Assembly (NCBI GenBank): GCA_020430445.1
Contig: JAGQJZ010000002.1
Location: 5,425-69,424, forward strand
Direction: 5' to 3'
DNA length: 64,000 bases
From: Nitrospina sp.
GTDB taxonomy: Bacteria > Nitrospinota > Nitrospinia > Nitrospinales > Nitrospinaceae
Both the position numbers and the translations under genes were made by a program. The notes beneath the pieces were generated by a model. The model searched no databases. It was not told the DNA's origin and was given only the letters and a program-made list of their open reading frames with translations. This document shows positions 26,280 through 58,748 of this stretch, piece after piece. Position 1 is the stretch's first letter. Each line of letters begins with the position of its first letter.

Positions 26280-26284
26280 CCTGG

Positions 26285-41313: not shown

Positions 41314-42263
41314 TCAACGGACACCGATTCGATAATGCGCTCCCCGATCTGTTGCGGGGTCATGCGTCCGCCCACCGGCATCAAGCGGTGCCCCGCAACC
41401 GAAGGCAGGACTTCCTGAATGTCTCCCGGGAGCAGCTTGTCTTCCCCATTGACCAGGGCCCAGGCCCGGGACGCCCGCAGCAGGGCGAGCCCCGCCCGCG
41501 TGGACAACCCGTTCTGAAACACCCCCGACTGCCGCGTGAAATAAAGAATGCGGTACAGATAATCCAGCACCGTGTCGGAGGCGTGCACTTCATCCACCTT
41601 CTTTTGCATCTCCAGAAGTTCAGACTGGTCCAGAACCGCCTCCAGACCTTCCAGCATTTCCCGGCGGTCCTGCCCGCGGAACAGTTCGATTTCAGAGTCG
41701 CGGTTGGGGTAGCCCATTTCGATCCGCATCAGGAACCGGTCCAGTTGGGATTCCGGCAAGGGAAAGGTGCCCTGCTGCTCGGTCGGGTTCTGGGTGGCGA
41801 TGACGAAGAAAGGCTCGGGCAGAAGACGGGTGTTGCCTTCCACGCTCACCTGCCGCTCTTCCATCCCCTCCAGCAGAGCGCTCTGTGTTTTCGGAGTGGC
41901 ACGGTTGATTTCGTCCGCCAGCAACAGGTTGGTGAAAATCGGCCCTTCATTAAAATGGAATTGGGAACTGTTTCGGTCGTAAACGGAAATCCCGAGAATA
42001 TCGCCCGGCAACAGGTCGCTTGTGAACTGGACCCGCTTGTATTCCAGACCGAGCGCCTTGCCCAGCGAATGCGCCAGAACGGTTTTACCCAGTCCCGGCA
42101 CGTCCTCAATCAAAAGATGGCCCTTGGCCAACAGACAGGTCATCGCCAGACGCAATTGCCTGGACTTGCCCAGAATGACCGAATCGAGCTGGTCAAACAG
42201 GGGCGGCAAACTTTGCGGAACTTTTTTCGTGCCGGGATTGATCGCCCTTATTTTTTCCTGCAT
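41310..42263 (-). CDS. MoxR-family AAA+ ATPase
   Basis: 317 aa. Walker A GLGKT, LLADEINRATPKTQSALLEGMEE, and VIATQNP sensor region. Confidence 0.92.
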   Translation of the reverse strand: MQEKIRAINPGTKKVPQSLPPLFDQLDSVILGKSRQLRLAMTCLLAKGHLLIEDVPGLGKTVLAHSLGKALGLEYKRVQFTSDLLPGDILGISVYDRNSSQFHFNEGPIFTNLLLADEINRATPKTQSALLEGMEERQVSVEGNTRLLPEPFFVIATQNPTEQQGTFPLPESQLDRFLMRIEMGYPNRDSEIELFRGQDRREMLEGLEAVLDQSELLEMQKKVDEVHASDTVLDYLYRILYFTRQSGVFQNGLSTRAGLALLRASRAWALVNGEDKLLPGDIQEVLPSVAGHRLMPVGGRMTPQQIGERIIESVSVE

Positions 42264-43186: not shown

Positions 43187-43407
43187 AATTGTTACCTAAG
43201 GCGAAGGTCAATATTTAAGAGTTCGAAATCAATCCCAATCCGGCTCTGCCGCCGGCATTGCAATCACGAATTGATTTTTGATGAAACCCTTAACCGATCC
43301 ACATCCTGAACCTGACAGGCATGCTCTTGAACCTGTTGGGAAACCTCCCGAGACCCAACGAAAAACGGTTAATAAAAAGTTTTGACCTTCACCCAGAACG
43401 ACGGACC

Positions 43408-44194: not shown

Positions 44195-44779
44195 CTAGCC
44201 GGGTCCCAGATCGTATTTGATTCCCAGCAAATGGCTCGGGTATTGTTTGCGCCGCGGAATTTCCACAGGCGGGTTTCCCCGGTTTATTTCTTTTGAAGCG
44301 CCTGCAGGACCGGTCCCGGTTTTTTCCCCGTTGGGCTTTTGAGCGTCCGCCCTAGGCTCAGGGCTCGTGGGTGATACGCTTGGAGCCATCCGTGCCGGGA
44401 CAGCGTCTCGCGCTCCGCCTCCCCGTTTCCCGGGCTCAAGCGCGGGGCGATGCCCTCTGTTTCCATGGGATGCCGAGGCCACTGCGGCAGCCGGCGGCCG
44501 GACCGGATTCACGGAGCGAACAAACATTTCCAGCCGATCGCCCCTGTGACGCACATCCCGGATAAAAATACGCATCCCGCCGTCCAAAGGGACAGAAACC
44601 GGTCCGGGTGGGGTGTAGCGGACTTCCGCGTGGCCTTTCGGTTCCACAACGGACAATTCATTTTTCACATCCCCTTTGGGCACCGTCTCGCAACCGGCCA
44701 ACACCAGCAGGAGAAAAGAGCAGGAGGTGACCCAACCGGTTCTCCGCTTCCAATAACGTTTTTGTTTGCATGGAATCAT
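44195..44779 (-). CDS. lipoprotein with Pro/Ala/Gly-rich tail (possible secretin pilotin)
   Basis: Lipobox LLVLAGC. ATGA overlap with the secretin stop. The pilotin role is inferred from position only. Confidence 0.7.
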   Translation of the reverse strand: MIPCKQKRYWKRRTGWVTSCSFLLLVLAGCETVPKGDVKNELSVVEPKGHAEVRYTPPGPVSVPLDGGMRIFIRDVRHRGDRLEMFVRSVNPVRPPAAAVASASHGNRGHRPALEPGKRGGGARDAVPARMAPSVSPTSPEPRADAQKPNGEKTGTGPAGASKEINRGNPPVEIPRRKQYPSHLLGIKYDLGPG

Positions 44780-47139
44780 GATCCGTTCTCCTGTCGGGCG
44801 ATTTCAAAAGAGTCGGAAATAATCAGGTAAGACAAGGCGGAATCTCCGGACTGCCCTCTGGGCGCCAGAACCTTGCTCCCCAAGGTGACCGCGCTCCACT
44901 CCCCCGTGAACTGGCTTTGATCCAGAACCCATTGCTCGTTCCCCTGATTTTGCAGGCGAACCGCCAGGACACGGTAACCGAACCCCTTCCAGACCTTGAC
45001 GATTTCAGTTGAAACGGACTCCGCTTCAAACATGCCCGGCGTCACTCCAAGGGCAAAATTCTCCACCGGCTGGATACCCTCCGGTGGTTTGAGGCCCGGG
45101 TTTTCCATCGCCTGCACAGCAAACCGCGTCAGGCTGATAAAGTCCTGTGTCGTGTCCCGCTTGGCGACGGGTTCCTCCTCGTCCAGATCTCTCAGGAATT
45201 GCATGGCGGGCCAGCGGGGCCGCTCCTGATCCGGGCGGTCCGGAATGGTCTGCCGCGACTTGAGGTATTGGTCCAGCGCATTGGGTTTCTGTACCAGGTC
45301 GTCCACCCGGTCTTCGGTATTTCCCTGCGCCTCTTCCGGAGTTTTGAACACATGCGGCGTGATCAGGAGCACGAGTTCCGAGCGGCGGAAGTCACGAATG
45401 TCGCGGCGGAACAGTTGCCCCAGAACCGGAATGGACGACAGAACCGGAACGCGCTCTTCGGAATCCGACGAGGTGGTTCGGATCATTCCACCCACGGCAA
45501 CAGTCAGTCCGTCACTGGCGATCACCGTGGCCTGGATGTTGGCGGTGTCCACCGTATCGACCGCGACCTCGCTGAGAACTCCGGAGGAGCCGGACACCGG
45601 CACGCGGCCGCTGTTGGGAGAAACAGAGGACGAGTCCTGTTGAATGCGCAGGGTTACGGTGCGGTCTGAATTGACACTGGGAATAATCAACAGCGTGTTG
45701 CCGATATCCCGGGTTTCCGTTTCCGGCGTGACGGTCACCACGCCACCGCCGCCCTGGGTCGCCAGAACATCGCTGTTGACTCCTGTCACCAACACCCGTT
45801 CCTCGCCGATAAACAAGCGCGCCGGGGTGTTGTTGGAGGCGAGGAGCATGGGCGTAGCCAGGATGTTGACCTTGTCTTCGGTTTCCAGCAGTTGCAAACG
45901 CGACAGGATCTGGTTGCTCATCACCTGGAAGACCCCGGTATTCCCCGGAGCCAGCAGGAAATTGCCAAGCCCCAGGCTGACGTCCGGGCCATTTCCCGGA
46001 GTTGCCGGCGACAGGGGATTTCGCGGCTGGATCGTCGGCGGACCCACCGACGTCGTCTCGCTCGAGTAACTGAGATCCAGAACGGAGCGGAAGCTGTCGC
46101 CGATGGTGACATCGAGAATTTTCATTTCCAGCAAAACTTGAGGAACCGGCTTGTCCAGATCCTGGATCAACTGGCGGATGTGCTCCATCGCTTCTTTGTC
46201 GGTGGTGCGCACCAGCAATTGGTTGTGCAGGTGGTTGGTGCTCAGATAAATGATCGCCTTGTCGCGTTGAACAAGTCCCGAGACATCTTCTTCGGAAATC
46301 CGCCCGCCACCTCCCCGCAACCGGTCAAGTGCCGCCAGGCGTTCCGGCGACAAATTGGCGCTTTCGTCCAGATCGAGATTGCCTTCGGAAAAACCACTGC
46401 CGCCAAATCCACCCCCAACGCCCCCGGAGCGGAAACTGCCCCGCCCGCGAGAAGACCCGCTGCCCGTTGCCCGGCGGTTGATGCCCCTTCCACCAGAAAG
46501 ACGGCCTCCCCCGAAACCGCCGCCGCCAAACTGACTCCCGCCAAACCCGCCGCCGCCAAGCTGTCCGCCGCCAAACCCACCACCAGCCCCACCACCCAAG
46601 CCTCCGCCGGCTCCACCGAACCCTCCTCTCAGTTGAAAGGGATCGATGTCGATGGTCTGTGAATACTGGATCCGGTTCAGGTAGATATCCTGAATAATGC
46701 GGGCCGCGGCGGTCACGTTCTGGAACCTCAGGGTAAACACCTCGATGATGTCCTCGCGGAAAACGATGATGTCTTTGCGGTATTCATCCGTCGTCATGAC
46801 AATATAGGTGTCGGTCTTTTCGTTGAACCGGTACCAGAGCCCCGTTGTACGGCAGATGCTGTCGATGGCTTTCTTGACCGTGGTGTCCTTGAGATACACC
46901 GACACAATTTTTTTCCCCGCCTCGGAAGTGACGACAATATTGACGTCGGTCGTTTCGGAGATAATCCGGAAAGCGTCCTGAACCGTGGCCTCCTTGAATT
47001 CAAGATCCGAGATCGACAGGTCGTCATTTACGATTTCAGCCAGACTGGTGGAGACCGGTGATACCACCAGGATCAGCGAAAGGAGCAGTGACAAAAGCCG
47101 GGAACAGAATTTGCGCTGGCGTGACAATTTGTGTCTCAT
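44776..47139 (-). CDS. secretin (GspD/PilQ superfamily) with Gly-rich insert and C-terminal extension
   Basis: 787 aa. Signal peptide, N-domains, secretin core ending ...ELVLLITPHV, then 190 more residues. Confidence 0.9.
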   Translation of the reverse strand: MRHKLSRQRKFCSRLLSLLLSLILVVSPVSTSLAEIVNDDLSISDLEFKEATVQDAFRIISETTDVNIVVTSEAGKKIVSVYLKDTTVKKAIDSICRTTGLWYRFNEKTDTYIVMTTDEYRKDIIVFREDIIEVFTLRFQNVTAAARIIQDIYLNRIQYSQTIDIDPFQLRGGFGGAGGGLGGGAGGGFGGGQLGGGGFGGSQFGGGGFGGGRLSGGRGINRRATGSGSSRGRGSFRSGGVGGGFGGSGFSEGNLDLDESANLSPERLAALDRLRGGGGRISEEDVSGLVQRDKAIIYLSTNHLHNQLLVRTTDKEAMEHIRQLIQDLDKPVPQVLLEMKILDVTIGDSFRSVLDLSYSSETTSVGPPTIQPRNPLSPATPGNGPDVSLGLGNFLLAPGNTGVFQVMSNQILSRLQLLETEDKVNILATPMLLASNNTPARLFIGEERVLVTGVNSDVLATQGGGGVVTVTPETETRDIGNTLLIIPSVNSDRTVTLRIQQDSSSVSPNSGRVPVSGSSGVLSEVAVDTVDTANIQATVIASDGLTVAVGGMIRTTSSDSEERVPVLSSIPVLGQLFRRDIRDFRRSELVLLITPHVFKTPEEAQGNTEDRVDDLVQKPNALDQYLKSRQTIPDRPDQERPRWPAMQFLRDLDEEEPVAKRDTTQDFISLTRFAVQAMENPGLKPPEGIQPVENFALGVTPGMFEAESVSTEIVKVWKGFGYRVLAVRLQNQGNEQWVLDQSQFTGEWSAVTLGSKVLAPRGQSGDSALSYLIISDSFEIARQENGS
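46385..46630 (-). repeat. in-frame Gly-rich low-complexity repeat inside the secretin gene
   Basis: Encodes GGFGGAGGGLGGGAGGGFGGGQLGGGGFGGSQFGGGGFGGGRLSGGRG...GGVGGGFGGSGF. The DNA shows reiterated ccgccgccaaa(c/g)ctg...ccgccaaaccc units. Confidence 0.8.
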
Positions 47140-47146
47140 TATGAAT

Positions 47147-47842
47147 TCACCTCACGATCATCACCTGCCCCAGGGACCCCACTTCCACCACCAGGTTCAG
47201 GCGATTGATTTTTTTTATTCGGACCACTGCATCCTGCCCCAGTTCATTCAACCCAACGGTATCTTCTTCCCTCACAACATGGGTTCCGCCACCCTTGATC
47301 TCCAGCAACGCCGCGATTTTCTCTCCCTCACGGCGGATGATGCCCCTCAGTTTCATGGAGGGGAAATCCGGTCCCGCCCGGCCCGGCTTGAAAGCAAGCG
47401 ACTCCCGGCCCTGCCCGGCGGCCCGCATATCCAATAGCCGCGTGGTGACCGCAAAAGGATCGCGCTGCCCGTTGTAATACCCCACCTGCCGCGGGTCCAC
47501 GCCCGTTGGCGCGTTGGAAGGGGCCTGCAGGACGCGCCCTCCATTCACGTTGTTTTGAACGTTATTGATTTGAGGAGACGCCGGAGCGGGATTGGCCGGG
47601 TTTTCCTTTTGCGAAGGCACCGGCGCAGGTCCCTTTTCAGAAATGGGGAGACGCTCATTCACCGAATCAAAATATTCCCCAATGGTTTCCATATTTTTCA
47701 TGATGGACTCCTTCGGGGTCATGCGGTCTTTCAGCGTCTTTTTATCGGCGGCGCCTCCCTTTTGAGCCTGCGCGTTGCCTGCCAGAGCCCACAACAACAC
47801 CAGGCATACGGCAACCCATGCCTTTCGGTCCATTGAAATCAT
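47147..47842 (-). CDS. PilP/GspC-HR-like periplasmic assembly protein
   Basis: Signal peptide, Pro/Asn-rich linker, and the C-terminal pattern KLRGIIRREGEKIAALLEIKGGGTHVVREEDTV...VVRIKKINRLNLVVEV. ATG at 47840-47842 with an AGGGGGG RBS. Confidence 0.65.
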   Translation of the reverse strand: MISMDRKAWVAVCLVLLWALAGNAQAQKGGAADKKTLKDRMTPKESIMKNMETIGEYFDSVNERLPISEKGPAPVPSQKENPANPAPASPQINNVQNNVNGGRVLQAPSNAPTGVDPRQVGYYNGQRDPFAVTTRLLDMRAAGQGRESLAFKPGRAGPDFPSMKLRGIIRREGEKIAALLEIKGGGTHVVREEDTVGLNELGQDAVVRIKKINRLNLVVEVGSLGQVMIVR

Positions 47843-47875
47843 TTTCGAGTCCCCCCTCACCAAAAAATGTTTTGC

Positions 47876-49114
47876 CTATCCGGCGCCCGAGACCGCAAGC
47901 AGGGCCGAGAAAAAAGCGTAGTACACCAGCCCGACCGGAACCGCGATGAGCAGCACCGCGATCGGCACCATCCATTCCGTCAATGTGGAAATACGGGCGG
48001 TCAACTCCTTGCGGTAAAACTCACCGGACTCCTCCATCACCTGCTCGAGCTGGCCACTGCGTTCTCCCACTGCCGCCATGTGTTGCATCAGCAAAGGCAA
48101 AACCGATTCGTTGAACGCATTTGCGAGACTGCGCCCGCTTAAAATCTGGTTGGCGGACGATTCAAAAACATCCACCAATGCCTGGTTGTTCATGACGCTT
48201 GCAGTCATTCTGAGAGAGTCCAGCAGGGTCACGCCGCTGCGCAACAACATCGCCATCGTCCAGCCCGCCTGGGCCATTCCAGCTATGAGCGCCGTTTTTC
48301 CGATCACCGGGATGCGGAGGATGACGTTGTCGATGGCGCGTTTACCGCTTGCCGTGGTGTAAGCCACCAGCAGCCCAAAAACCACAGCCGCAAAAGTTCC
48401 AAACAGGGTCGGCCCATTGACGATAAACCAGTCCGAGACATCCAGAAGAAACTGCGTCGTCGGTGGAAGCGCCTCGCCCCGGCCCGCAAGAAAGTCTGCG
48501 AACTTGGGGATAACCGTTGTGACCAGGAAATAGAGAACCCCGCCCCCGATGAGAATCAGAAAAGCCGGATAAATCATCGAGACCATGAACTGGCGTTGCA
48601 CCTCGCGGCGCCGCGCCAGGTCGAGAGACAACCGTTCCAATATGGGCGACAGGTCGCCACCATGTTCACCGCTGGCCACCAGCTGGGCCTCCAGTTTTGA
48701 AAAGGTCTGCTTTTCATCCGCCACGGCGGTGGAAAAATTAGAACCCCTGCGGATCGCGTCCGCCATCCTGTTCAGGGCTCTCTCCAGCCGCAACCGGTCC
48801 GTCAGTTGAGTGCAGGCATCCAGGGCCTGCACCACGGTGTAGCCCGAGCGCAACATCAGGGCCATCTGCCGGAAAAAAAGGCTGCGATCATAAGGGCTCG
48901 GCGGCAGGTAGCGGGTCAGCATCAAATACCGCAGAAACTCCCGCGGGGATTTCGTCCCGCTTCCCCGGGCCTTTGCCGCGCCTTCCCGTATATCCACCAC
49001 AAAAAGCGATTTGGCCCGCAGTTGTTTCGCCGCTTCACGCGCATCGGTGGCGCTGATCGTCCCGTGCGTTTCCTTGCCGCCCTTGTCCAGGGCTGTGTAG
49101 GCAAACTGCGTCAT
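47876..49114 (-). CDS. GspF/PilC-family inner-membrane platform protein
   Basis: 412 aa. MTQFAYTALDKGGKETHG start and a duplicated T2SSF-type architecture. Confidence 0.92.
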   Translation of the reverse strand: MTQFAYTALDKGGKETHGTISATDAREAAKQLRAKSLFVVDIREGAAKARGSGTKSPREFLRYLMLTRYLPPSPYDRSLFFRQMALMLRSGYTVVQALDACTQLTDRLRLERALNRMADAIRRGSNFSTAVADEKQTFSKLEAQLVASGEHGGDLSPILERLSLDLARRREVQRQFMVSMIYPAFLILIGGGVLYFLVTTVIPKFADFLAGRGEALPPTTQFLLDVSDWFIVNGPTLFGTFAAVVFGLLVAYTTASGKRAIDNVILRIPVIGKTALIAGMAQAGWTMAMLLRSGVTLLDSLRMTASVMNNQALVDVFESSANQILSGRSLANAFNESVLPLLMQHMAAVGERSGQLEQVMEESGEFYRKELTARISTLTEWMVPIAVLLIAVPVGLVYYAFFSALLAVSGAG

Positions 49115-50745
49115 ACCGCATCCACGAGAAAACCGAGATGGGCCACCTCATTCAGACTGGTCAATCCCAGCAACACCTTTTCGCGGCTATCCTTGGCCAG
49201 AGTGTGATGCCCGCGCGCCGCTTCCCTTATCTGGGTTTCCGTCGCCCCGTCGGCGATCATCTGCCGCATTTTATTGTCCACCCAAAAAGTTTCGAACAAT
49301 CCCACCCGGCCGAGAAAACCGGTGCCGAGGCAATTCGGACAGCCCGCCGGTGTCCACAGTTGCAAACCGTCTTCCAGTTCGCCGCCAAGAATCCGCCGTT
49401 CCTCCTCCGTCGCCACATGAGATTGCCTGCATTGCGAACAGAGCCGCCGCACCAGGCGCTGAGCCAGAACGCCGATCAGGGTGGAACCGATCAGAAACCG
49501 TTCGGCGCCGATATCGACCAGGCGCGACACCGCGCTGATGGCATCGTTAGTGTGCAGGGTCGAAAGCACCACGTGACCGGTCATGGACGCCTTCAACGCC
49601 GTTTGCGCCGTTTCCAGATCGCGGATTTCCCCGACCAGAATGACGTCCGGATCGTGCCGCAAAAAAGAACGCAGGGCCTGCGCGAAATCGAGTTTTCCGG
49701 TGACCTGCACCTGGGACACCCCTTCGATGATCTGCTCCACCGGGTCTTCCACCGTGAGAATATTGATTTCACTGGAATCGAGTTCGCGCAGCGCCGCATA
49801 AAGCGTTGTCGACTTGCCGCTCCCCGTCGGCCCGGTCACCAGGATCATGCCGTGCGGCCGGTGGATGGCATCGCGGAGTTGATTCAATGTGAACTCCGGC
49901 ATCCCCAGTCCTTCCAGACTCAAGCGGCCGGTTTCCTGCCCGAGCAACCTCAGGGTCGCCCTCTCCCCCCAACGGGTGGGAACCGTGGCGACGCGGACAT
50001 CGATTTCACCCATGTCCCAGTCCCGCACGCGGTACGACATCCCTCCGTCCTGGGCGATGCGCTGCTCGGCGATATCCAGCACCGCGAGCACCTTCAATCG
50101 GGTCATCAACGCCTCGCCGTCGGCATGGGAGAGCGGTTTGGGATAATCCTGCAGATGCCCGTCGACCCGGAGCCGGACACGGAAATCCACCTTGTTGGGT
50201 TCGAAATGAATGTCCGAAGCCCGCCTCAAATACGCCTCCTTCATGATGGCGTCGAACAGGGCGATGGAATCTCCGCCGGTGGTCAGGTCCGGCGTTTCCA
50301 GCAAGGGATTGCTCCCCTTCATCTGCCGGAAGATGGCGGCTTCAATCGCTTCGGGATCGGCCAGGGCAGGCTGAAAGTGCTCCCCGCTGGCGCGCTGGAT
50401 GCTGTCGATCCCGATCTGGTCGTCCGGGTCCGCCATGGCCAGAACCCGGGTTCCGTTGGCGCCCTTGACCGGAAAGATCAACCGCCTTTGCATCAGATTG
50501 GCGGGCAGCTTGCCGATGATGTCCGCATCTCCCCGCAATTCGCGGTTGTGCAAGAAAGGGATCCCCCGCAGATCGGCAAGCGCCTGGTACAGCGCGGTGA
50601 CGGGGAATCGTCCCTCGCGCGCGACCGCTTCCAGTAAACTGATCCTTTCCCGGCGGGCCTGCAACTTGAGACGGCTGATGGTGGTGCTGTCCACCAGACC
50701 GGATTGCAGCCCTGCATTGATCAGCGTGTTTTCATTGACCGCCAT
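49111..50745 (-). CDS. GspE/PilB-family assembly ATPase
   Basis: 544 aa. Walker A GPTGSGKSTT, Asp box, His box, and the tetracysteine motif CSQC...CPNC. Confidence 0.92.
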   Translation of the reverse strand: MAVNENTLINAGLQSGLVDSTTISRLKLQARRERISLLEAVAREGRFPVTALYQALADLRGIPFLHNRELRGDADIIGKLPANLMQRRLIFPVKGANGTRVLAMADPDDQIGIDSIQRASGEHFQPALADPEAIEAAIFRQMKGSNPLLETPDLTTGGDSIALFDAIMKEAYLRRASDIHFEPNKVDFRVRLRVDGHLQDYPKPLSHADGEALMTRLKVLAVLDIAEQRIAQDGGMSYRVRDWDMGEIDVRVATVPTRWGERATLRLLGQETGRLSLEGLGMPEFTLNQLRDAIHRPHGMILVTGPTGSGKSTTLYAALRELDSSEINILTVEDPVEQIIEGVSQVQVTGKLDFAQALRSFLRHDPDVILVGEIRDLETAQTALKASMTGHVVLSTLHTNDAISAVSRLVDIGAERFLIGSTLIGVLAQRLVRRLCSQCRQSHVATEEERRILGGELEDGLQLWTPAGCPNCLGTGFLGRVGLFETFWVDNKMRQMIADGATETQIREAARGHHTLAKDSREKVLLGLTSLNEVAHLGFLVDAV

Positions 50746-50749
50746 TGAA

Positions 50750-51847
50750 TCAGGCCCCTCTCAAAACGGAAATCTGCAGCAACTTGTCAAAAGCGACCGG
50801 GTCGTTACAGAACTGGCGCGCGACCTCACGGCTGATCTGCCGCCGCGCCACCAGTTGAGCCAGGGACTGATCCCGCGTCTGCATGCCCTCACCCGCTCCA
50901 CTTTCCATCGACGAATAAATCTGCCGCGTTTTCGCCCCGTCGATCAGATTGGCTACGGCCAGGGTGACCATCAGGATTTCGACCGCCGGTACGCGGCCGC
51001 CGCCATTCGACGTCGGCAGCAGGTGCTGCGAAACCACCGCGCGCAGGCTCATCGCAATCCGGTGACGCGCCACCGACTGTTCGTCTCCCGGGAAACTGCC
51101 GACAAAGCGTTCCACCGTCCCCACCGCATCGGCGGTGTGCAGGGTCGAAAACACCAGGTGTCCCGTCTCCGCCGCCGTCATCGCGGCGCGCATGGTCTCG
51201 AGATCGCGCATCTCCCCGACCATGATCACGTCCGGGTCTTCCCGCAGGGCGGAGCGGATGGCCGAGGGAAAATCGGGAACGTCGGTGTACAGTTCACGGT
51301 GATGGATCAGACTCTTTTTGCCCACGTGGATGAACTCGACCGGATCCTCAATCGTCAGGATATGGCAATTCCGGTTGGTATTGATTTCGTGCAGGAGCGC
51401 CGCCAGCGTGGTGCTCTTGCCACTGCCCGTCGCCCCCGTGACCAGAACCAGACCGGATTTCAGATGCGCCAGTTTTCGCAACTGCGGAGGCAGGGACAAC
51501 TGCTCCACATCACACATGTCCTGATCGATATGGCGGATGGCCATCGCCACCTGCCCCAATTGGCGGTAGCAATTGACCCGGAAGCGGTCTCCTTCCGGCG
51601 AGCTGTATCCCAGATCGATCGACTGCTGACTTTCGAATTCAGCCTGCTGGCCCGGCGTCATCAGGGAATGCACGATCATCTCCAGGGTTTCTCCTGAAAC
51701 GGCTTCCGCTTCCAGGGTTTTGAGTTCACCGTGCAGACGGTAAACCGGAGGACGGCTGATACTGAGATGAAGATCGGAAGCCCCCTCCTTGACGCAAAAA
51801 AGAAGCAGTTTGTCGAAGGCGGCCTTGTCTGTGATTTCCGGGTTCAT
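50750..51847 (-). CDS. pilT: PilT-family retraction ATPase
   Basis: 365 aa. GASDLHL, GATGSGKSTT, and a PilT-like AVANLIDGAK segment. No N-terminal GspE-type domain. Confidence 0.9.
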   Translation of the reverse strand: MNPEITDKAAFDKLLLFCVKEGASDLHLSISRPPVYRLHGELKTLEAEAVSGETLEMIVHSLMTPGQQAEFESQQSIDLGYSSPEGDRFRVNCYRQLGQVAMAIRHIDQDMCDVEQLSLPPQLRKLAHLKSGLVLVTGATGSGKSTTLAALLHEINTNRNCHILTIEDPVEFIHVGKKSLIHHRELYTDVPDFPSAIRSALREDPDVIMVGEMRDLETMRAAMTAAETGHLVFSTLHTADAVGTVERFVGSFPGDEQSVARHRIAMSLRAVVSQHLLPTSNGGGRVPAVEILMVTLAVANLIDGAKTRQIYSSMESGAGEGMQTRDQSLAQLVARRQISREVARQFCNDPVAFDKLLQISVLRGA

Positions 51848-52518
51848 AGCGTTAACACCATATTGACTTTGATTTGACCGGAAGGGAGCGGCGGCAGCTC
51901 CTTGCCCGTGGGCGCGGCTCCCCCTCCCAGAACGGCAACATCCAGATTGACCACGGTGACGTGGTAGGTCAGGCGTTTCAACTCATCCAGAAAACGCACC
52001 AGGCTCCAGTAGGTCGTCTCCGCGTTCAACTCATACAAGGGACGCCCGTAAGCATTGCGCATTCCCAAACTCGGTCGGCCCGGCCTGTTCACGGCACCCG
52101 CGCCCGGGGTGTCCTTCGAGTCCACCACCGCGGCCTGCACCACCTGCAAGCCGGACCGCCGGGCCAGCGTCGAGATTTCAAGCCGCAACCGCTGTTGCAC
52201 CGTTGCCGAATCCGTGGGCGCGAACCCCTGCATGTTCTCGTTCAAACGGGCACGGACCACCTCCAGGTCTTTTTTAAGATCCCCAAGTTTTTTTTCAAGC
52301 CCCAGCACATTGGCGTCCGTCTCCTTGGTGATCTGGGTTCTTTTCTGGATGCGGTCCAGCCGCCGCTTGATCATGTTCTCGGAATGCAACAGGGCCTTGG
52401 ACGTCCGGGGATACACCGCAAAGGTGTACGCGGCGATGACCACCGCCAGTCCGATGATCATCAGACGGTTGCGATCTTTGGGGTTGAGCATGATCCAGCG
52501 TTTTTTCAGTCGATTCAT
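51844..52518 (-). CDS. PilO/GspM-like bitopic assembly protein
   Basis: 224 aa from MNRLKKRWIML. One TM, a coiled coil and a periplasmic domain. ATGA overlaps on both sides. The family call rests on position and topology. Confidence 0.6.
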   Translation of the reverse strand: MNRLKKRWIMLNPKDRNRLMIIGLAVVIAAYTFAVYPRTSKALLHSENMIKRRLDRIQKRTQITKETDANVLGLEKKLGDLKKDLEVVRARLNENMQGFAPTDSATVQQRLRLEISTLARRSGLQVVQAAVVDSKDTPGAGAVNRPGRPSLGMRNAYGRPLYELNAETTYWSLVRFLDELKRLTYHVTVVNLDVAVLGGGAAPTGKELPPLPSGQIKVNMVLTL

Positions 52519-54236
52519 CCCAGCGCCACCTCGTTTGAAATCAACGGCACCAGCCACATGCTGAAACCGTACCCGTCCAGGCCCAGCCGCCCCCGGTTGG
52601 CGGAAACCTCGACCCCGGTGACGCGAAATCCCCATTGCTCCAACGCCTTGTTCAGGCGGCTCAGAAAAATTTCCGCGCCGGTATCGGTCAGCGCCCAGCC
52701 CGTTACCCGTACACCCGCGGTGGTTCTGGACTCAGCAATACTGTTGAGGATGATCTCATCACTGACCGACCCCGCCAGCGCCTTGAGCATTCCGGGCACC
52801 GACTCCTGCCGCTCCATGAGAACCTTCTCGAAGATCCGGTTCTTCTCTATCAACTCATCGAGTTCGCGCCGGGTTTCGACGATGCTCTCTTCCAGAACCT
52901 TGCCCCTCGAAGCATCACCTTCCACCTTCTTTTTGATACTCATCTTCTCCTCGAACTGCTCCTCAAGCCTGGCTTCCTTTTTCTTGTTCTTCCAGATCTC
53001 GTAGCGGATGGAGGCGTCGAAGCCCGCCACTCCCAGCAGCACCAGTCCCGCCGCCGCGTAAGGGTACAGTTCCCTGCGCTTCCAAAGAGGCTGCTTCGGC
53101 GGCTGGGCGTTCAACCGCGCCGTGGCGTTGACCGGCGCACGGCCGAGGTAATGCGCGGCGGCCCCGGCAAGCGCCGCCAGCCCCTGCGGGTCCGGCTTGC
53201 CTTCAAGGGTGACGGTTTCCACCTTGCGCCCGGTGTGCCCGGCCAGTTCATCCGCCAGCCCGTGACTGCCGGAACCCGGAGCGAACAGATACACCGTGCG
53301 CAGGTCCGGCCGCAATTGCTCCTGGCACAAGGCGAACAAGTCCAGTGAATCCGGCAGGCCGTTGCTCACCGGAGCCATGCGGACGGCGGACAACTGACCG
53401 GCACGGCCGCGAAAGGCCGCCATCTGCTCCTGCCGGACTTCGATCAATAACTGCTCCCCCTTGGCGCTCCCCGTCAGGGCGAAGGCATTGCCCAGTTGCG
53501 GATAAATCCATTCCAGCGTGAGCCCGTTCTGACGGAACGCTTTCTCCCAGGCACCGGACATGGACTTGCCGATCCCGACGGTGTACCAGGCGTAAACATC
53601 CTCCCCGCCGGGCGCCATGGCGTCTTCTTCTGAAACCTGCGGCGCCCAGCCGCAGACCAGATCGTCGTTGACCAGAATCAACTGTTCCTGAATCGCCAGG
53701 CATTCGTCCACCTGTTCGCGGCTGATCAAATTCAACTGAATCGCCACCTCGCCGAAGGGAGCCGACTTGCGTTTCCCGGTCTGGTCCTGGCCCATGCTCT
53801 GTTCCTTCGTCACCAGCTCCCTCTGCTCGGCGGTGAGGTAACCACGCCCCATCAACAGGGAGCCAAGGGACCAGATATCGTTCTGCTGGCCGAACAACGG
53901 CTCCAGTTCCCAGCGGATCAACTCCTGCATCTGCTCGTCCGTGCGCGGGTTCGCCGGGCTGACCGGTAACTCCAGCAGCGTGCCCACCGCGGAAGGCGTC
54001 ACCAGAAGCGCCTTTTTCGGAGGCTTGCGTCCCTGCTCCTCCAACTGCTCGACCAGTTCCCCGACCGCCACGCGAAAATCGACCGCGCGCGATTCCACCA
54101 CCGGACCGATGTCCACCCCGCCGCCGCCCGATTTGATGACCGCGCCGCGGATGCGGCAACCATCCGTTTCGCAAGCGAACACCGAGCCGGGCGCGCCGAC
54201 CTTGATGTTGTCGAGTTTTTTAAAGAAACCGAGCAT
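52515..54236 (-). CDS. PilM-PilN fusion (GspL-like) assembly protein
   Basis: 573 aa. N-terminal actin-like PilM-type region, one TM (LYPYAAAGLVLLGVAGF), then a coiled coil and PilN-like periplasmic domain. Confidence 0.75.
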   Translation of the reverse strand: MLGFFKKLDNIKVGAPGSVFACETDGCRIRGAVIKSGGGGVDIGPVVESRAVDFRVAVGELVEQLEEQGRKPPKKALLVTPSAVGTLLELPVSPANPRTDEQMQELIRWELEPLFGQQNDIWSLGSLLMGRGYLTAEQRELVTKEQSMGQDQTGKRKSAPFGEVAIQLNLISREQVDECLAIQEQLILVNDDLVCGWAPQVSEEDAMAPGGEDVYAWYTVGIGKSMSGAWEKAFRQNGLTLEWIYPQLGNAFALTGSAKGEQLLIEVRQEQMAAFRGRAGQLSAVRMAPVSNGLPDSLDLFALCQEQLRPDLRTVYLFAPGSGSHGLADELAGHTGRKVETVTLEGKPDPQGLAALAGAAAHYLGRAPVNATARLNAQPPKQPLWKRRELYPYAAAGLVLLGVAGFDASIRYEIWKNKKKEARLEEQFEEKMSIKKKVEGDASRGKVLEESIVETRRELDELIEKNRIFEKVLMERQESVPGMLKALAGSVSDEIILNSIAESRTTAGVRVTGWALTDTGAEIFLSRLNKALEQWGFRVTGVEVSANRGRLGLDGYGFSMWLVPLISNEVALG

Positions 54237-54241
54237 GCACG

Positions 54242-55258
54242 TTACCTTATAGTGAGTTCTGGGTTGGGCCGTGCAACCCCAGCGTAAAAATTGACATGGG
54301 CAGTGGCCAATTGAGTTCCTGTAACAGTCGAATCCGCATCAAAAGTGTGCGTTTCAGAAATTCCGTTGTGCCGCGTGGTGTTATCCGCATCTTGCACTAA
54401 CAACAGGAGGTGCTCCCCTTGCGGAATACGCATGGAGGTTTGTACCGCGTCCGGAGCTGGAAATGTCATAGTGTTATTGCCAACAACCAAGTCGTCTCCT
54501 ACAACACAATCGCTGGTAAGACGCCTCCAGTTAAAATTGTCGGCCGGACTATTGTCATTATTCACATAAACCAGCAGGGAAACTCGAAAACACCCTCCAC
54601 TGGCTGAGACAGTAGAGCCGCGTGTGTTTTGTACCATCACATTCCAACCTTCGAGATCAACCGTCCAGTCTGCTTCCTCAATAGTGTCAGTAATATCCGG
54701 CTCGTATAAATTGACCCCTCCCGCGACATTATCCTTTCCCAGTGTTGTGCTGGGGAAAACAGTCGCAGTAACAGTACCGGTAAAACCGTTTCCCCAGCCG
54801 TCATTAAAATTATTACTGCCGGGTGGAAGCGTGAGATAACCGCCACGGTATCCCTTGAATAATTGATTGGACCCACCCGTTACATCGCTGTTATTAGTGG
54901 CATCATTTAAGCCTGTTCCATTGACTGGATCTTGGTCAAAGGCAGGAATTCGAAGACTAAAGGTGTCGTAATCTGTGTGTTGAGTCGTCAGGTCTGCGCG
55001 AACTTCAGGGAGACGGCCATTATCCACCACATACCCGGAGAGCAGGCGCTGGCCGTTGTAGACGGGCTGGGTTTCGCCGACGATGGCCTTGCGGATCAGC
55101 GTCAGCCGGTTGCGCGTGTCTTCAAAGCGCACCTGGTCGGTGTTGTTTTCCACCGCCGACAGGGTCATGAACGCGGTGACGGAAAGCAGCGTCACCACCA
55201 GCAGCAACTCGAGCAGGGTGAAACCGGACTGATCGGAACGCTTGTGCCGAGGCGTCAT
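54242..55258 (-). CDS. large prepilin-type pseudopilin (338 aa)
   Basis: Leader MTPRHKRSDQSG/FTLLELLLVV with Glu at +5. Confidence 0.8.
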   Translation of the reverse strand: MTPRHKRSDQSGFTLLELLLVVTLLSVTAFMTLSAVENNTDQVRFEDTRNRLTLIRKAIVGETQPVYNGQRLLSGYVVDNGRLPEVRADLTTQHTDYDTFSLRIPAFDQDPVNGTGLNDATNNSDVTGGSNQLFKGYRGGYLTLPPGSNNFNDGWGNGFTGTVTATVFPSTTLGKDNVAGGVNLYEPDITDTIEEADWTVDLEGWNVMVQNTRGSTVSASGGCFRVSLLVYVNNDNSPADNFNWRRLTSDCVVGDDLVVGNNTMTFPAPDAVQTSMRIPQGEHLLLLVQDADNTTRHNGISETHTFDADSTVTGTQLATAHVNFYAGVARPNPELTIR

Positions 55259-55749
55259 GTTCCCGGCTCCTTCTCAAACCCCACCACCAGAAAAGCGGGC
55301 CCCTTGGAATAGTTGTAAACGTGGAAGGCATTGAACCGCACCTTCTGCCCCACCTTCAGCCTGTCTTTTATTTTCAGGGCGGCCATGTCCTCGACGTAAA
55401 CGGGAATGATCGCGCCGCCCCGGGTCTTCACAAACATGCGGTGCGACACTTCCGGCAGCGGGTCCAGCCCGCCACCGACTCTCAGGGCGGTGTAGATGTA
55501 TTCCAGCTTGCGCGCTTCCGGCAGGCGCATGATTTCGATATCGAGCTTCACCGGCCGGGCCGGGCGCAAAATCAACCGCTGGCCGTCGTCGCGTCTGGTA
55601 TTGGCGATGACCTGGTCCAGATTGATCGACTGGAATTTAGTGCGCTCCGGTGCGGACGGAGCCTTCTGTTCTTCGGCGAACGGCGCAACCGGAGCCGCGA
55701 GCAGGAAAAACAGACTGAAAAAAATGGCGTGCACGGTTTGTCTTCTCAT
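55255..55749 (-). CDS. secreted hypothetical protein (164 aa)
   Basis: Signal peptide FFSLFFLLAAPVAPFA. Start and stop overlap both neighbouring pseudopilin genes. Confidence 0.6.
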   Translation of the reverse strand: MRRQTVHAIFFSLFFLLAAPVAPFAEEQKAPSAPERTKFQSINLDQVIANTRRDDGQRLILRPARPVKLDIEIMRLPEARKLEYIYTALRVGGGLDPLPEVSHRMFVKTRGGAIIPVYVEDMAALKIKDRLKVGQKVRFNAFHVYNYSKGPAFLVVGFEKEPGT

Positions 55750-56570
55750 CAGTTCACACTCACCACGATGTCGTCGTTATCACCCTGTTCGTAATCCCCG
55801 TTGGGGCCGAGCGCCACGATGCAGGGCACGCTGCAATTGGTGACATTGCCCTCGGCGGCATCGGCAATGAAATACAAAAACGGCCGGCCATGGGTCAGAA
55901 ACGCGGGCCCACCGCTATAAGGCCGCCAGTCGAGAACGCAAGCGGTGTTTCCCGGGTTTTCCACGCAATCACCACCACCGCCGACCTGGGGCCGAAGCTC
56001 GCTCGGGTCGGCCACACCCCACACGGAAAAGTGGACGGCGGTATCGATATCCACCGGGTTTCCAGTACCGTCTTCAATCAGCGCGTCCCCCACGTCCACC
56101 AGGTTTTCGCGTTTCAGGTACGGCCCGCGCCAGCCGCGTCCGCTTTCGGCATCCCACGGCAGGACACAGTTGGAACAATCGGCGGCAGGATCGTTGCCAT
56201 CGTTCGTCGGCTGGCGGTAAAGCTGTTCCAGGTTGGCGGGAGACTCAAAAAGCAACAGATCAGCCGCCGGCTCCGGGTCCGTGGGATTCAAATCCACTTG
56301 CCCTCCGTTTTCTTCATGATCGAACGGTCCTTCCTTCGGATAGTAGCCGGTGTCCTGGCGGAACTGGCGGATGGCCTTGGCCACTTCCTGCAGTTCGGCG
56401 CGGGTCAATGTCGCCCGCGCGTCTTCGTCGACACCGGTGAACGTGCTGACCCCGATGGAGACCACCGCGATGAGGACGGCGATGACGACCATCAACTCAA
56501 TCAGGGAAAAACCGGATTCCGCCTGTGCCGGGATCGGATCCCGGCCCCAAAACCCTTCTCGGTTGTTCAT
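55749..56570 (-). CDS. prepilin-type pseudopilin (273 aa)
   Basis: Leader MNNREGFWGRDPIPAQAESG/FSLIELMVVI. An alternative in-frame TTG at 56583-56585 has AGGAGGGG 10 nt upstream. Confidence 0.8.
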   Translation of the reverse strand: MNNREGFWGRDPIPAQAESGFSLIELMVVIAVLIAVVSIGVSTFTGVDEDARATLTRAELQEVAKAIRQFRQDTGYYPKEGPFDHEENGGQVDLNPTDPEPAADLLLFESPANLEQLYRQPTNDGNDPAADCSNCVLPWDAESGRGWRGPYLKRENLVDVGDALIEDGTGNPVDIDTAVHFSVWGVADPSELRPQVGGGGDCVENPGNTACVLDWRPYSGGPAFLTHGRPFLYFIADAAEGNVTNCSVPCIVALGPNGDYEQGDNDDIVVSVN

Positions 56571-56707
56571 CGTTTCTGGCCCCAAACGAAAAAATCCCCT
56601 CCTGGAAGACCGGACGGGATGCAGTACAGTTTTATTGCAGAAGAAAGTCAAATCCGGGGACTACTCCGGTTTTCACATTCCTGGGACACCTGGTTACCCG
56701 GCCTTAC

Positions 56708-56729
56708 CCGACGTTCTTCCGACGTTCTT
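56708..56729 (-). repeat. perfect 11-bp tandem duplication in the 5' UTR of the pseudopilin operon
   Basis: ccgacgttctt ccgacgttctt on the plus strand. The transcript would read AAGAACGUCGG twice. Confidence 0.85.
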
Positions 56730-56840
56730 TTGAATGTCTGGAAGTTGACCCCCGTCCCGTTCGCGCCCTTCCGGGGCAACGCGGAACCGGTTATCAAATT
56801 CCCGTTCTAAAAATCCAACAATCTGATTGATTTTTTGGAA

Positions 56841-56869
56841 ATTATAGAACGACCGCCTCAAGGTGTCAA
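56841..56869 (-). promoter_or_regulatory. consensus sigma70 promoter facing the pseudopilin/assembly operon
   Basis: Minus strand reads TTGACA (56869-56864), 17-nt spacer, TATAAT (56846-56841). Both hexamers match consensus perfectly. Confidence 0.55.
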
Positions 56870-57038
56870 TCTAGTTTATTGTAAATAAATGGCTTATTTA
56901 TTTTTTGATTTTCATTCTCCGAAAGTCTGACGTTTTACAATCGATTGACAATCATAATCATTTGTATTCATTGGCCCCGGCTTCCTTCCTCTCCGGTCCG
57001 CCGGGAACTCACGTTTTCCCCGTTTTAAAACAGGCGAA

Positions 57039-57066
57039 CTGCCGCACCCGGGGGAGGGTGCGGCAG
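57039..57066 (-). terminator. stem-loop directly after the major pilin gene (terminator or attenuator)
   Basis: CTGCCGCACCC-N6-GGGTGCGGCAG, an 11-bp stem 30 nt after the pilin stop. A U-run (GUUUUAAAA) begins 8 nt after the stem. Confidence 0.55.
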
Positions 57067-57095
57067 CTCTGGAGGGTCAAACAAACACCGGATGT

Positions 57096-58079
57096 TTAGA
57101 TGGTGTTACGCGTGCCATCCCATTCACCCAGTTCTTCTTCCTTGGTGTCGCCTGCACCGTCAACAATAGCCACGAGCAGAACCTGGTCAACCGCAGTCGC
57201 CCCACCTGCACCATCGGTGGTACCAATACGAAACAAAGCAGTGAAGCGGTTGTACTCGTTTGACTGAACATGACGATACACCGGAACCGAAGTCATGCCA
57301 CCGAGCTGCGTCTTGTCGAACAGGGTGGAACTCGGTCCGAGACCGACCGCCATCATCACCGGCAAACCGTTATCAGCAGTAGAAATATCCAAAGCAGCGC
57401 CAGACAGGGCAATATCATTAGTTACTTGCTGACCAGTAATACGCTCGGTTCCCCCACCCCATGCCAGAACGGTAGTCGCATTTCCAATAGGATGGTCACC
57501 ACCGCAACCGTTGGCGGCGGGGCTCAGGAAAATGTTACCGGCGACGACGGCATTACCGCGGTCTGCAACCAGGGCAGCAAGGTTATCGCAATCTCCAGAA
57601 CCATCCGGATCATGCCCCGCATTACCGGTGGTAGGATAAGTGACACGAAGAGTGGTGATACCAATATCGCTCAAACGCTCAACTACGGTATCGCCCGCTG
57701 CAGCTTCACCAGCAGATGTAATAGTAGACAGAGTCAGAGTACCCAGAGCATCATGCACTGCGGTGCTCACCTGCACTGCTCCCGTATCCCCCACAGTACT
57801 ACCTGCACCACCATCCATAATAGAATCGAAGCGGTCCGGATACCGGTTCTTGTTGAGCACGCGGAATTCGCGGATGCCCTTGTCGAGTTCGTCCATCATG
57901 GCGACGTGAGCCGCGGCGGACGCACGGGCGTCGGTGTCCTGCAGCGCCACAACGGCGGTGCCGGCGATGGCGGCCAGGATGGCGACCACGACGAGCAATT
58001 CGAGCAGGGTGAAACCGGACTGGTTGCCCGCCAGGCGTTTTGCGCGATTGCGCAGTTTTGCAATCAATGCGTTGTACAT
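57096..58079 (-). CDS. large type IV pilin-like major subunit (327 aa)
   Basis: 22-residue leader MYNALIAKLRNRAKRLAGNQSG/FTLLELLVVVAILAAIAG with Glu at +5. GAGGAG RBS. Followed by its own hairpin. Confidence 0.85.
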   Translation of the reverse strand: MYNALIAKLRNRAKRLAGNQSGFTLLELLVVVAILAAIAGTAVVALQDTDARASAAAHVAMMDELDKGIREFRVLNKNRYPDRFDSIMDGGAGSTVGDTGAVQVSTAVHDALGTLTLSTITSAGEAAAGDTVVERLSDIGITTLRVTYPTTGNAGHDPDGSGDCDNLAALVADRGNAVVAGNIFLSPAANGCGGDHPIGNATTVLAWGGGTERITGQQVTNDIALSGAALDISTADNGLPVMMAVGLGPSSTLFDKTQLGGMTSVPVYRHVQSNEYNRFTALFRIGTTDGAGGATAVDQVLLVAIVDGAGDTKEEELGEWDGTRNTI

Positions 58080-58183: not shown

Positions 58184-58310
58184 CGGCCCCACGCCGTCAT
58201 TCACTCGTGCTTCTTCCGGATAAATTCGCAACCGGCCCTACCCCTGGGACACGGTCCGTCCGGTTCTGAATTGAGTTCCCACTCGGGTTCTATAGCGCGG
58301 CCCCACGCCG
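58184..58310. repeat. 13-bp direct repeat pair upstream of the pilin gene
   Basis: cggccccacgccg occurs at 58184-58196 and 58298-58310. The second copy lies in the last codons of the upstream ORF. Confidence 0.8.
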
Positions 58311-58748
58311 CCGCTCATTTGAATTCTCTCCAGGCTTTCCACCTTCGGTGTCTTCCGACACGCGCCGGTCACCGTGAATCCGGCGGTCCACCGTGATACG
58401 TCTTTCCAGCCGGAAGTCGCGTTTTGCCGAAAGGGTGCGCCGGTCCCGCCCCCCTCTCCGCACCCCTTCACGCCGGCAGGTTCCGACATAGTTTTTGTTG
58501 GATCCATGCCAGGCTTTCCTCGGAACCACCTGGTGCCGGTAGCGGTTTTTTGCCACGGCCTGACTCTCATAATCCACCACCCACCGGTGCTGCTTGCCGC
58601 AATGGAGGATGACTTCCTTTTGACCGCGCCGCTGAATCTTGATCTCGACCCGGATTTCGCCATAACCATCGTGGGCGAAAACATCGTCGTACAATTCGAC
58701 CAGTTTGTTCAGGACCGTCAGGTTGGTTGCATTACCTCCCACAGACAC
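58290..58748 (-). CDS. hypothetical protein with Arg-rich DRR-repeat tail (152 aa)
   Basis: GTG start. N-terminal part LNKLVELYDDVFAHDGYGEIRVEIKIQRRGQKEVILHCGKQHRWVVD. Tail RRGGRDRRTLSAKRDFRLERRITVDRRIHGDRR. Confidence 0.6.
   Translation of the reverse strand: MSVGGNATNLTVLNKLVELYDDVFAHDGYGEIRVEIKIQRRGQKEVILHCGKQHRWVVDYESQAVAKNRYRHQVVPRKAWHGSNKNYVGTCRREGVRRGGRDRRTLSAKRDFRLERRITVDRRIHGDRRVSEDTEGGKPGENSNERRRGAAL

Follow-up and report, generated by a model that had tools for sequence, protein, structure and literature searches.

A cluster of twelve genes on the minus strand of a Nitrospina sp. contig probably encodes a retractile surface pilus machine that belongs to a distinct type IV filament (T4F) lineage. 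It lies at positions 44195-58079 of the 64,000-nucleotide stretch analyzed (hereafter the window; assembly GCA_020430445.1, contig JAGQJZ010000002.1, positions 5,425 to 69,424). The lineage would fall within the PilMNOP-containing group, which comprises the type IVa pilus (T4aP), the mannose-sensitive hemagglutinin (MSH) pilus and the type II secretion system (T2SS); a probability of about 0.6 is given to this reading. Neither a description of this family nor experimental data on any of its members was found in the literature on T4F classes and PilM/MshEN.

All twelve open reading frames (ORFs) are intact and translationally coupled. They are co-directional and for the most part overlap, as a preliminary description made from the sequence had reported, with overlaps of 1-4 nt or spacings of 4-12 nt; the sole exception is an AT-rich gap of 444 nt following the first gene. 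The products are three prepilins, a secreted 164-aa protein, a 573-aa PilM-transmembrane (TM)-PilN fusion, a PilO/GspM-like protein, PilT, a PilB/GspE ATPase, a platform protein, a PilP-like protein, a secretin and a lipoprotein (Table 1). A 13th conserved gene lies directly upstream of the first pilin gene, outside the cluster coordinates originally given. The pilin and two pseudopilins that had been recognized earlier each carry a class III signal peptide, G↓F(T/S)L(L/I)E, and a Pfam N_methyl match, although the length of 273 aa given for the second holds only for a start at ATG, the ORF being 300 aa long from TTG. Pfam also recognizes the core T4F components, with 403 bits for T2SSE, 163 bits for T2SSF and 123 bits for Secretin, and these matches, the lipobox of the lipoprotein and the tetracysteine motif of the ATPase agree with the identities first proposed. 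The 164-, 573-, 263- and 238-aa products individually have no family match in Pfam or NCBIfam. There is no pilin in the cluster beyond the three and no PilY1-sized gene among its ORFs.

A genome scan with an alignment of the fusion protein identified 66 related loci, to which those of Brockia lithotrophica and Pseudaquabacterium were added, making 68. No tblastn match to the Escherichia coli prepilin peptidase GspO, or to GspC, GspH, GspK, GspL or GspM, was obtained in the window or in any of the 68 loci. The cluster lacks a prepilin peptidase, a GspG/H/I/J/K set and any further pilin set, as first described.

Class membership was tested with the curated NCBIfam equivalog cut-offs, and PilT is the only product of the cluster that passes a class-specific model. 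The assembly ATPase scores 485 bits on GspE (TIGR02533, cut-off 630) and 461 bits on PilB (TIGR02538, cut-off 676), and also misses the TfpB cut-off. The platform protein reaches 277 bits on GspF (TIGR02120, cut-off 424) and 228 and 182 bits on the PilC models (cut-off 700), and the secretin 166 bits on GspD (TIGR02517, cut-off 351), 128 on PilQ (TIGR02515, cut-off 284) and 103 on MshL (TIGR02519, cut-off 250). In a neighbor-joining (NJ) tree of 383 core columns, 57 family ATPases stand apart from all seven references (EpsE, two GspE, Geobacter PilB, Thermus PilF, HofB and R64 PilQ) with 98% bootstrap; grouping of the family with the T2SS or the PilB/PilF references has 0% bootstrap. The core of the window ATPase is about as far from GspE/EpsE (identity 45-49%) as from PilB/PilF (42-44%), the identity between EpsE and PilB being 48%. 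On these limited tests, the family would be a lineage as deep as the split between T2SS and T4aP. The missed cut-offs and the separate ATPases bear out the earlier opinion that the mosaic cannot be assigned to T4aP, the type IVb pilus (T4bP), Tad, MSH, T2SS or Com.

The same tests bear on the possibility, which appears rather improbable, that the cluster is a fast-evolving MSH system or a member of one of the T4aP clades whose accessory proteins have diverged past detection by hidden Markov models (HMMs). T4aP is polyphyletic, 884 'generic' systems were left unassigned by Denise et al., and MSH has no prepilin peptidase in its locus (PMC6668835); the present family likewise occupies a single locus without one, and its assembly ATPase has a GSPII/MshEN-type N-domain. 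However, MshM, which is mandatory in the TXSScan MSH model (Denise et al., PMC6668835), and MshN were not seen in the window or the related loci, though neither was searched for directly, and no ExeA-like ATPase or TPR protein occurs among the twelve products in Pfam or NCBIfam. The secretin is far below the MshL cut-off, and MSH loci are without PilT. Furthermore, the small protein encoded upstream of the pilin, the MshEN insert of the scaffold and the DUF3438-like tail of the secretin are missing from the descriptions of both MSH and T4aP.

The PilM-PilN fusion is the scaffold of the proposed machine. Its sequence gave nothing usable in Pfam, NCBIfam or PDB, and it was identified by structure prediction alone. 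An AlphaFold2 model from an alignment of 15 homologs (pLDDT 82) contains an actin-like domain (residues 18-365), a TM helix running into a long helix (388-490) and a ferredoxin-like domain (495-564). The actin-like domain is matched by Foldseek to PilM (5EOU, E 2e-10) and FtsA, and also to the cytoplasmic domain of GspL (4PHT_X and 5TKW, E about 2e-6). The fusion and its GspL architecture, both proposed in the preliminary description, are therefore supported, but the architecture is not specifically a T2SS trait, the match to PilM being better than that to GspL. A profile search of 1.84 billion representative proteins (clusters at 50% identity) returned 302 fusion clusters at E<1e-30, nearly all of 550-620 aa and aligned from end to end. 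Because these 302 clusters are full-length, and the model is single and continuous, an origin of the fusion from two genes separated by a frameshift is ruled out. PilM and PilN are fused in every family member found.

The actin fold of the scaffold contains an MshEN/GSPII-like insert of four confidently predicted helices. Searched against PDB, the family profile of this insert finds Thermus PilF first (7.7e-9) and the Vibrio cholerae MshE N-domain (5HTL) at 8e-5, and its top eleven matches, including the cyclic di-GMP (c-di-GMP) domain GSPII-B of PilF and Geobacter PilB, are all of the MshEN kind. NCBIfam NF053729, an MshE-related c-di-GMP motif, matches the insert with E 1e-4 and 22 bits, below its cut-off of 38. 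The second half-site, PFGEVAIQLNLISREQVDECLAIQ, fits 10 of the 11 positions of the relaxed MshEN motif (PMC5013675), and 112 of 155 family members fit at least 10 of 11 at one fixed site, compared with 2.7% of shuffled sequences. The family ATPases are without a tandem MshEN motif and have a degenerate motif in their own N-domain. In contrast, Brockia has the canonical tandem motif in its ATPase, where two half-sites separated by 5 residues fit 11 and 9 of 11 positions, and no insert in its scaffold. This reciprocal pattern, in which the contrast is a single genome, suggests that the receptor module may have moved from the ATPase into the scaffold. An MshEN-type module in the scaffold together with a degenerate ATPase motif also suggests that c-di-GMP or a protein partner might gate assembly through the scaffold instead of the ATPase. 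No description of an actin-like PilM domain with an embedded MshEN insert was found in the literature on PilM/MshEN.

The 327-aa prepilin, presumed to be the major subunit, has 305 aa when mature. Its N-terminal 85 residues are nearest those of T4a pilins (PilE, E 1e-4), and its identity across phyla is 48-69% within the PilT-containing subtype of the family. The hairpin past its stop codon looks like a terminator or attenuator, and the sigma-70 consensus promoter before the second pilin gene is the only one of its kind in the region. Together they fit an arrangement in which the pilin gene would form its own, highly expressed transcription unit, separate from the assembly operon. A sigma-54 promoter upstream of the pilin was also considered, and inspection revealed no convincing GG-N10-GC element. 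The second prepilin has a GspG-like N-terminal helix (TIGR01710 matches residues 46-107 of the 300-aa ORF with 36.6 bits, below the cut-off of 88.85) and is conserved in 58 loci; the third is conserved in 61.

Of all proteins in the system, the small cytoplasmic one encoded upstream of the pilin shows the strongest conservation. Its core, HDG[FY]GEIRVE.KIL[KR]R.QKEVI.HCGKQYR[FY]VVD, precedes the pilin in about 42 of the 66 loci, in both subtypes, with 48-76% identity. The protein matches nothing in Pfam or NCBIfam, and every one of its 105 database homologs is named hypothetical. A role as a regulator specific to the family, or as a factor that handles pilin, is probable. The C-terminal half of the window protein (58290-58560) is an Arg-rich tail with repeated (D/E)RR motifs, which is confined to the closest relatives, such as the Nitrospinaceae locus L001; the other homologs listed are mostly 60-110 aa long and have no tail. 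From its sequence, the tail may bind nucleic acid.

The remaining components combine features of pili and secretion systems. The assembly ATPase has a PilB/PilF-type GSPII N-domain (E 3e-9), not the N1E domain of GspE (XpsE, E 0.07), and scores 366 bits with GspE and 345 bits with PilB among solved structures. PilT matches Pseudomonas aeruginosa PilT with 306 bits, in line with the original identification. The O-like gene probably starts at 52518 and encodes 224 aa rather than 263. The PilO/GspM-like and PilP-like identities proposed for this product and the 238-aa one are partly borne out and weakly supported: the O-like protein has weak matches to T2SSM in 11 and to PilO in 10 of 28 orthologs, with a position conserved across loci, and Pfam PilP is matched by 13 of 30 orthologs of the P-like protein. 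The secretin scores 74 bits with PulD and 58 bits with PilQ among solved structures, and has no match to the AMIN domain; the C-terminal DUF3438/TraK_C-like domain is present in half of the family secretins. Between its N0-like and N3/secretin domains (residues ~170-270, window 46330-46630) lies a Gly-rich low-complexity linker, (GGFGG)n, the length of which differs between orthologs. The 194-aa lipoprotein has no sequence homolog in any related locus and was rejected as a conserved component, being kept as a positional analog. At least 20 related loci have a lipoprotein gene, in some cases Sel1/TPR-like, after that of the secretin, so the earlier statement that the cluster contains no pilotin is doubtful, and the lipoprotein is a candidate pilotin by position.

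The 66 loci come from genomes of at least six phyla and span Nitrospinota, Gamma- and Betaproteobacteria, Verrucomicrobiota, Planctomycetota and Acidobacteriota. Carriers include Chromatiales, Methylococcales, Methylophaga, Oceanospirillales, Colwellia, Moritella and Methylophilaceae, and the closest locus is that of Ca. Nitronauta litoralis (72% identity in the fusion-protein scan). The gene order that recurs in tblastn is small protein, pilin, second pilin, (164-aa protein), third pilin, fusion, O-like protein, (PilT), ATPase, platform, P-like protein and secretin. The loci of B. lithotrophica, a Firmicute, and Pseudaquabacterium encode in order the small protein, the pilin, a ~600-aa protein, a ~200-aa protein, PilT, an MshEN-ATPase and the platform. 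The Brockia ATPase falls outside the family bipartition (inclusion bootstrap 15%), so Brockia is assigned to the family by its gene order. The Brockia locus (L067, 10001-20252) belongs to a presumably monoderm organism, and its sequence ends before any secretin position. No family member was found in a plasmid collection, where the best matches are ordinary GspE proteins at 39-49% identity.

Loci without PilT form a single derived clade of 32 (100% bootstrap). In 17 of its loci a Wzy_C/Wzy_C_2 gene (O-antigen-ligase/PglL-like) adjoins the pilin gene (for example, L018 1783-5289 and L025 4086-6060); this domain pair is that of the PglL/TfpO-type pilin O-oligosaccharyltransferases. The clade also encodes, in 16-18 loci, a two-component pair consisting of a response regulator of LuxR type and a HisKA_3 kinase whose periplasmic sensor domain is LapD_MoxY_N. 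Many of the PilT-less loci with Wzy_C or LuxR/HisKA_3 neighbors come from methylotrophs.

Downstream of the Nitrospina cluster lies an operon for a MoxR (AAA_3) ATPase, a DUF58 protein and a TgpA-like transglutaminase. Twelve related loci from five phyla, without exception of the type with PilT and the 164-aa protein, also have this trio, or its beginning, next to the cluster; it is a candidate associated module that would supply accessory or maturation factors. The literature yielded only an archaeal precedent for a link of these proteins to pili: archaeal type IV pilus (T4P) loci show a similar linkage of MoxR/vWA pairs and transglutaminase-family peptidases (Makarova et al., PMC4858521).

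Some loci depart from the common order. In five Oceanospirillales loci (L012, L013, L014, L017 and L028), the P-like and secretin genes lie upstream and the two minor pilin genes downstream, and the platform gene is followed by that of an additional 429-aa T2SSE ATPase, which has no N-domain (for example, L012 16428-17717); this ATPase pairs loosely with E. coli HofB in the NJ tree (46% bootstrap). In a Thiohalocapsa locus, the main cluster is preceded on the opposite strand by a second, partial set (L004 817-2810, minus strand), made up of two pilin-like genes and a fragment of an ATPase, which may be a duplication remnant.

The 164-aa protein has 22 homologs and is restricted to the PilT-type subtype. 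Its AlphaFold model is an OB-fold (pLDDT 77), and the protein is a candidate periplasmic accessory or maturation factor. Foldseek pairs the model with the OB-folds of SSB, the LysRS anticodon-binding domain, CcmE and IF1, at E about 5e-3, matches too weak for a functional assignment. A DNA-uptake (competence-type) pilus, in which PilT-driven retraction would pull in DNA by way of the secretin, to be bound by the periplasmic OB-fold protein, would agree with the presence of PilT and with the nucleic-acid-binding nature of the best structural matches (SSB, LysRS and IF1). Such a role is nevertheless very unlikely, since these matches are weak and OB-folds bind varied ligands, as CcmE illustrates; moreover, the OB-fold protein is wholly missing from the PilT-less clade. 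No ComEA, ComEC or DprA gene was noticed in the window or beside the clusters of related loci, though they were not specifically searched for.

The balance of traits leans towards a pilus because PilM is a better match than GspL for the scaffold, the N-domain of the ATPase is of PilB/PilF type and the pilin N-terminus is T4a-like. Also counted for a pilus are PilT, the separate pilin hairpin and operon promoter, and the Wzy_C/Wzy_C_2 gene beside the pilin in the sister clade. In such a machine, the 327-aa prepilin would be made from its own transcription unit and processed by a prepilin peptidase encoded elsewhere, and the two other pilins would prime the filament. Two docking sites are proposed for the PilB-type ATPase, the platform protein and the actin-like domain of the single-chain scaffold, and the periplasmic part of the scaffold would pair with the PilO/GspM-like protein. 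The PilP-like protein would connect this inner-membrane complex to the secretin, the targeting of which is probably aided by the downstream lipoprotein, and PilT would power retraction.

Several observations weigh against this proposal. The scores of ATPase, platform and secretin lean slightly to T2SS, each being higher on the GspE, GspF and GspD models than on PilB, PilC and PilQ, and the ATPase tree is an NJ tree with few references and no MshE. One of the genes interspersed with those of the pilins codes for a secreted protein, a placement that a T2SS substrate could also have. With just three pilins, none of them a GspK/PilX-type subunit lacking E5, the priming mechanism is hard to see. 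In the scaffold insert, the first half-site is degenerate and without the conserved Arg, and the spacer has 13-20 residues instead of 5, so c-di-GMP binding by the insert is uncertain. Finally, 19 loci encode PilT together with the 164-aa protein, 28 encode neither, four have PilT alone and one has the 164-aa protein alone (Fisher test, p = 2e-9), but a functional coupling of the two was downgraded: the PilT-less loci being one clade, the pattern amounts essentially to one loss event and is not independent evidence.

Some of these points would suit a divergent T2SS, in which a short three-pilin periplasmic pseudopilus pushes exoproteins through the secretin. It could have the 164-aa OB-fold protein as its cargo, or substrates whose genes lie elsewhere; the fusion would be GspL, the O-like protein GspM and the P-like protein GspC, and PilT would merely help the pseudopilus to disassemble. 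Besides the T2SS-type best scores, the higher identity of the ATPase core to GspE/EpsE and the secreted protein, this explanation can draw on the GspL-like single-chain scaffold with one M-like partner, the compact single locus and the GspG-like N-terminal segment of the second pilin. It is unlikely all the same: every T2SS equivalog cut-off is missed, the five E. coli Gsp components are unmatched, and the family ATPases never group with T2SS references (0% bootstrap). The ATPase N-domain is PilB-type rather than the GspL-binding N1E, a dedicated canonical PilT is present, and the pilin, long and T4a-like at its N-terminus, has its own transcription unit.

A wider form of the retractile-pilus reading can be put forward tentatively, as somewhat doubtful. 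The family might be an unnamed T4F class equal in rank to T2SS, MSH and T4aP that has spread horizontally through at least seven phyla, with its receptor module moved into the scaffold and with its own dedicated small cytoplasmic protein, OB-fold partner and MoxR/vWA/transglutaminase maturation module. In that case, the maturation module would parallel that of archaeal T4P loci. T4Fs are among the most widespread prokaryotic nanomachines, and their classification is built on few model systems. The present family has a compact machine, encoded in one locus, that makes do with three pilins as a minimal set, and its carriers include marine and methylotrophic bacteria that can be cultivated (Neptunomonas, Methylophaga, Methylotenera and Thiocystis). 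It makes three questions testable: how a filament is primed without a GspK/PilX-type subunit, whether a c-di-GMP switch that is normally ATPase-borne can reside on a single-chain PilM-PilN scaffold, and what role the PilT version has relative to its PilT-less sister clade. The small upstream protein and the fusion protein are uncharacterized families without a Pfam model and are possible markers for the system.

Table 1. Features of the Nitrospina filament cluster and its immediate surroundings (window coordinates)
Feature	Position	Strand	Remarks
Small cytoplasmic protein, 152 aa	58290..58748	-	Conserved ~50-aa N-terminal core
Large prepilin, 327 aa	57096..58079	-	N_methyl and TIGR02532 matches; 22-aa leader (...NQSG↓FTLLELLVV)
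Hairpin, 14 bp GC-rich stem and T-tract	57036..57069	-	27 nt past pilin stop codon
Sigma-70 consensus promoter, TTGACA-17-TATAAT	56841..56869	-	12/12 positions; in AT-rich gap before second pilin/assembly operon
Second prepilin, 273 aa from ATG	55749..56570	-	N_methyl match; ORF reaches 56651 from TTG (300 aa)
164-aa protein	55255..55749	-	Signal peptide; predicted OB-fold
Third prepilin, 338 aa	54242..55258	-	N_methyl match; 12-aa leader; E5 present
Scaffold fusion, 573 aa	52515..54236	-	PilM/GspL-like actin fold, one TM helix, PilN-like ferredoxin-fold domain
MshEN/GSPII-like insert, residues about 121-186 of scaffold	53679..53876	-	Four confident helices inside actin fold (AlphaFold)
PilO/GspM-like bitopic protein, 224 aa	51844..52518	-	ATG overlaps upstream stop; longest ORF 263 aa
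PilT retraction ATPase, 365 aa	50750..51847	-	TIGR01420, 416 bits (cut-off 319)
Assembly ATPase, 544 aa	49111..50745	-	T2SSE and MshEN/GSPII domains; CSQC...CPNC tetracysteine motif
Platform protein, GspF/PilC family, 412 aa, inner membrane	47876..49114	-	T2SSF x2
PilP/GspC-HR-like protein, 238 aa	47147..47863	-	Pfam PilP in 13/30 orthologs (best E 4e-5); T2SSC in one
Secretin, 787 aa	44776..47139	-	STN/N0-like N-terminus, Gly-rich linker, N3 and secretin domain, DUF3438/TraK_C-like C-terminus
Lipoprotein, 194 aa	44195..44779	-	Lipobox LLVLAGC; translationally coupled to secretin gene
MoxR (AAA_3)-DUF58-TgpA-like transglutaminase operon	38268..42263	-	Pfam; downstream of cluster

Between the lipoprotein gene and the MoxR operon lie a Phenol_MetA_deg-type outer-membrane beta-barrel gene and a 110-aa ORF (42332-43561, minus strand); the same barrel gene occupies the equivalent place in the Nitrospinaceae locus L001 (20436-21449, 51% identity). 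The only other prepilin gene in the window, at 34101-34622, is an orphan of true GspG type (T2SSG, 53.7 bits; 38% identical to E. coli GspG) and lies beside a multiheme cytochrome gene, where the preliminary description had placed it. It overlaps the end of that gene (34606-36357) within a minus-strand cluster at 31642-38249, and its other neighbors encode cytochrome b561, an FTR1 iron permease, a ferredoxin-NAD(P) reductase-like protein and a beta-barrel outer-membrane protein. A pseudopilin within an iron or electron-transfer cluster is unusual. Also on the minus strand, a two-partner secretion module at 22396-28030 encodes a 987-aa TpsA-like protein with a TPS domain, a FecR-domain protein and a ShlB/FhaC-type transporter, and an RND efflux pump directly upstream of the filament cluster (59451-63988) consists of an AcrB-family transporter (1020 aa, continuing past the window edge) and an OEP outer-membrane factor.

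Among known systems, T4aP (PilA, PilBCD, PilMNOPQ and PilT/U, for example in P. aeruginosa and Myxococcus xanthus) shares with the family PilM-, PilN-, PilO- and PilP-like parts and a secretin, PilT, a PilB-type GSPII N-domain on the ATPase, a T4a-like pilin N-terminus and a separately transcribed major pilin. Unlike T4aP, the family has PilM and PilN in one chain with an MshEN-like insert, and all its genes in one locus. Its pilins number only three, and it has neither a FimU-PilVWXE set nor PilY1. It has a very large pilin (305 aa mature) with a 22-aa leader, an extra small cytoplasmic protein and a secretin with a DUF3438/TraK_C-like tail and no AMIN match, and it does not reach the PilB, PilC and PilQ cut-offs.

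T2SS (GspC-O) resembles the family in its compact operon, its single-chain cytoplasmic-TM-periplasmic scaffold (GspL) with one M-like partner, its tetracysteine ATPase and the top HMM scores for ATPase core, platform and secretin. In contrast to T2SS, the family has no GspG/H/I/J/K set, no GspC with a PDZ domain, no GspN and no GspO. Its scaffold, O-like and P-like proteins have no sequence similarity to GspL, GspM and GspC, its ATPase N-domain is not N1E, PilT is present, and the GspE, GspF and GspD cut-offs are not reached.

MSH is alike in its single locus without a prepilin peptidase, its MshEN/GSPII-type domain, its O-like and P-like partners and its secretin. MSH also has a fused PilM-PilN-like protein, MshI, and its gene order in V. 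cholerae, mshIJKLMNEGF-BACDOPQ, differs from that of the present locus. The family differs further in having PilT, three pilins rather than about seven, a secretin that scores below the MshL cut-off and a c-di-GMP-type motif in the scaffold instead of the ATPase. The scaffold insert itself resembles the MshEN/GSPII domains of V. cholerae MshE and Thermus thermophilus PilF (GSPII-B) in its predicted four-helix unit, in its best PDB profile matches and in the 24-residue second half-site, which fits the published relaxed motif in most members. It differs from them in its first half-site without Arg, its spacer of 13-20 rather than 5 residues and its position, embedded in an actin-like PilM domain rather than at the N-terminus of an ATPase.

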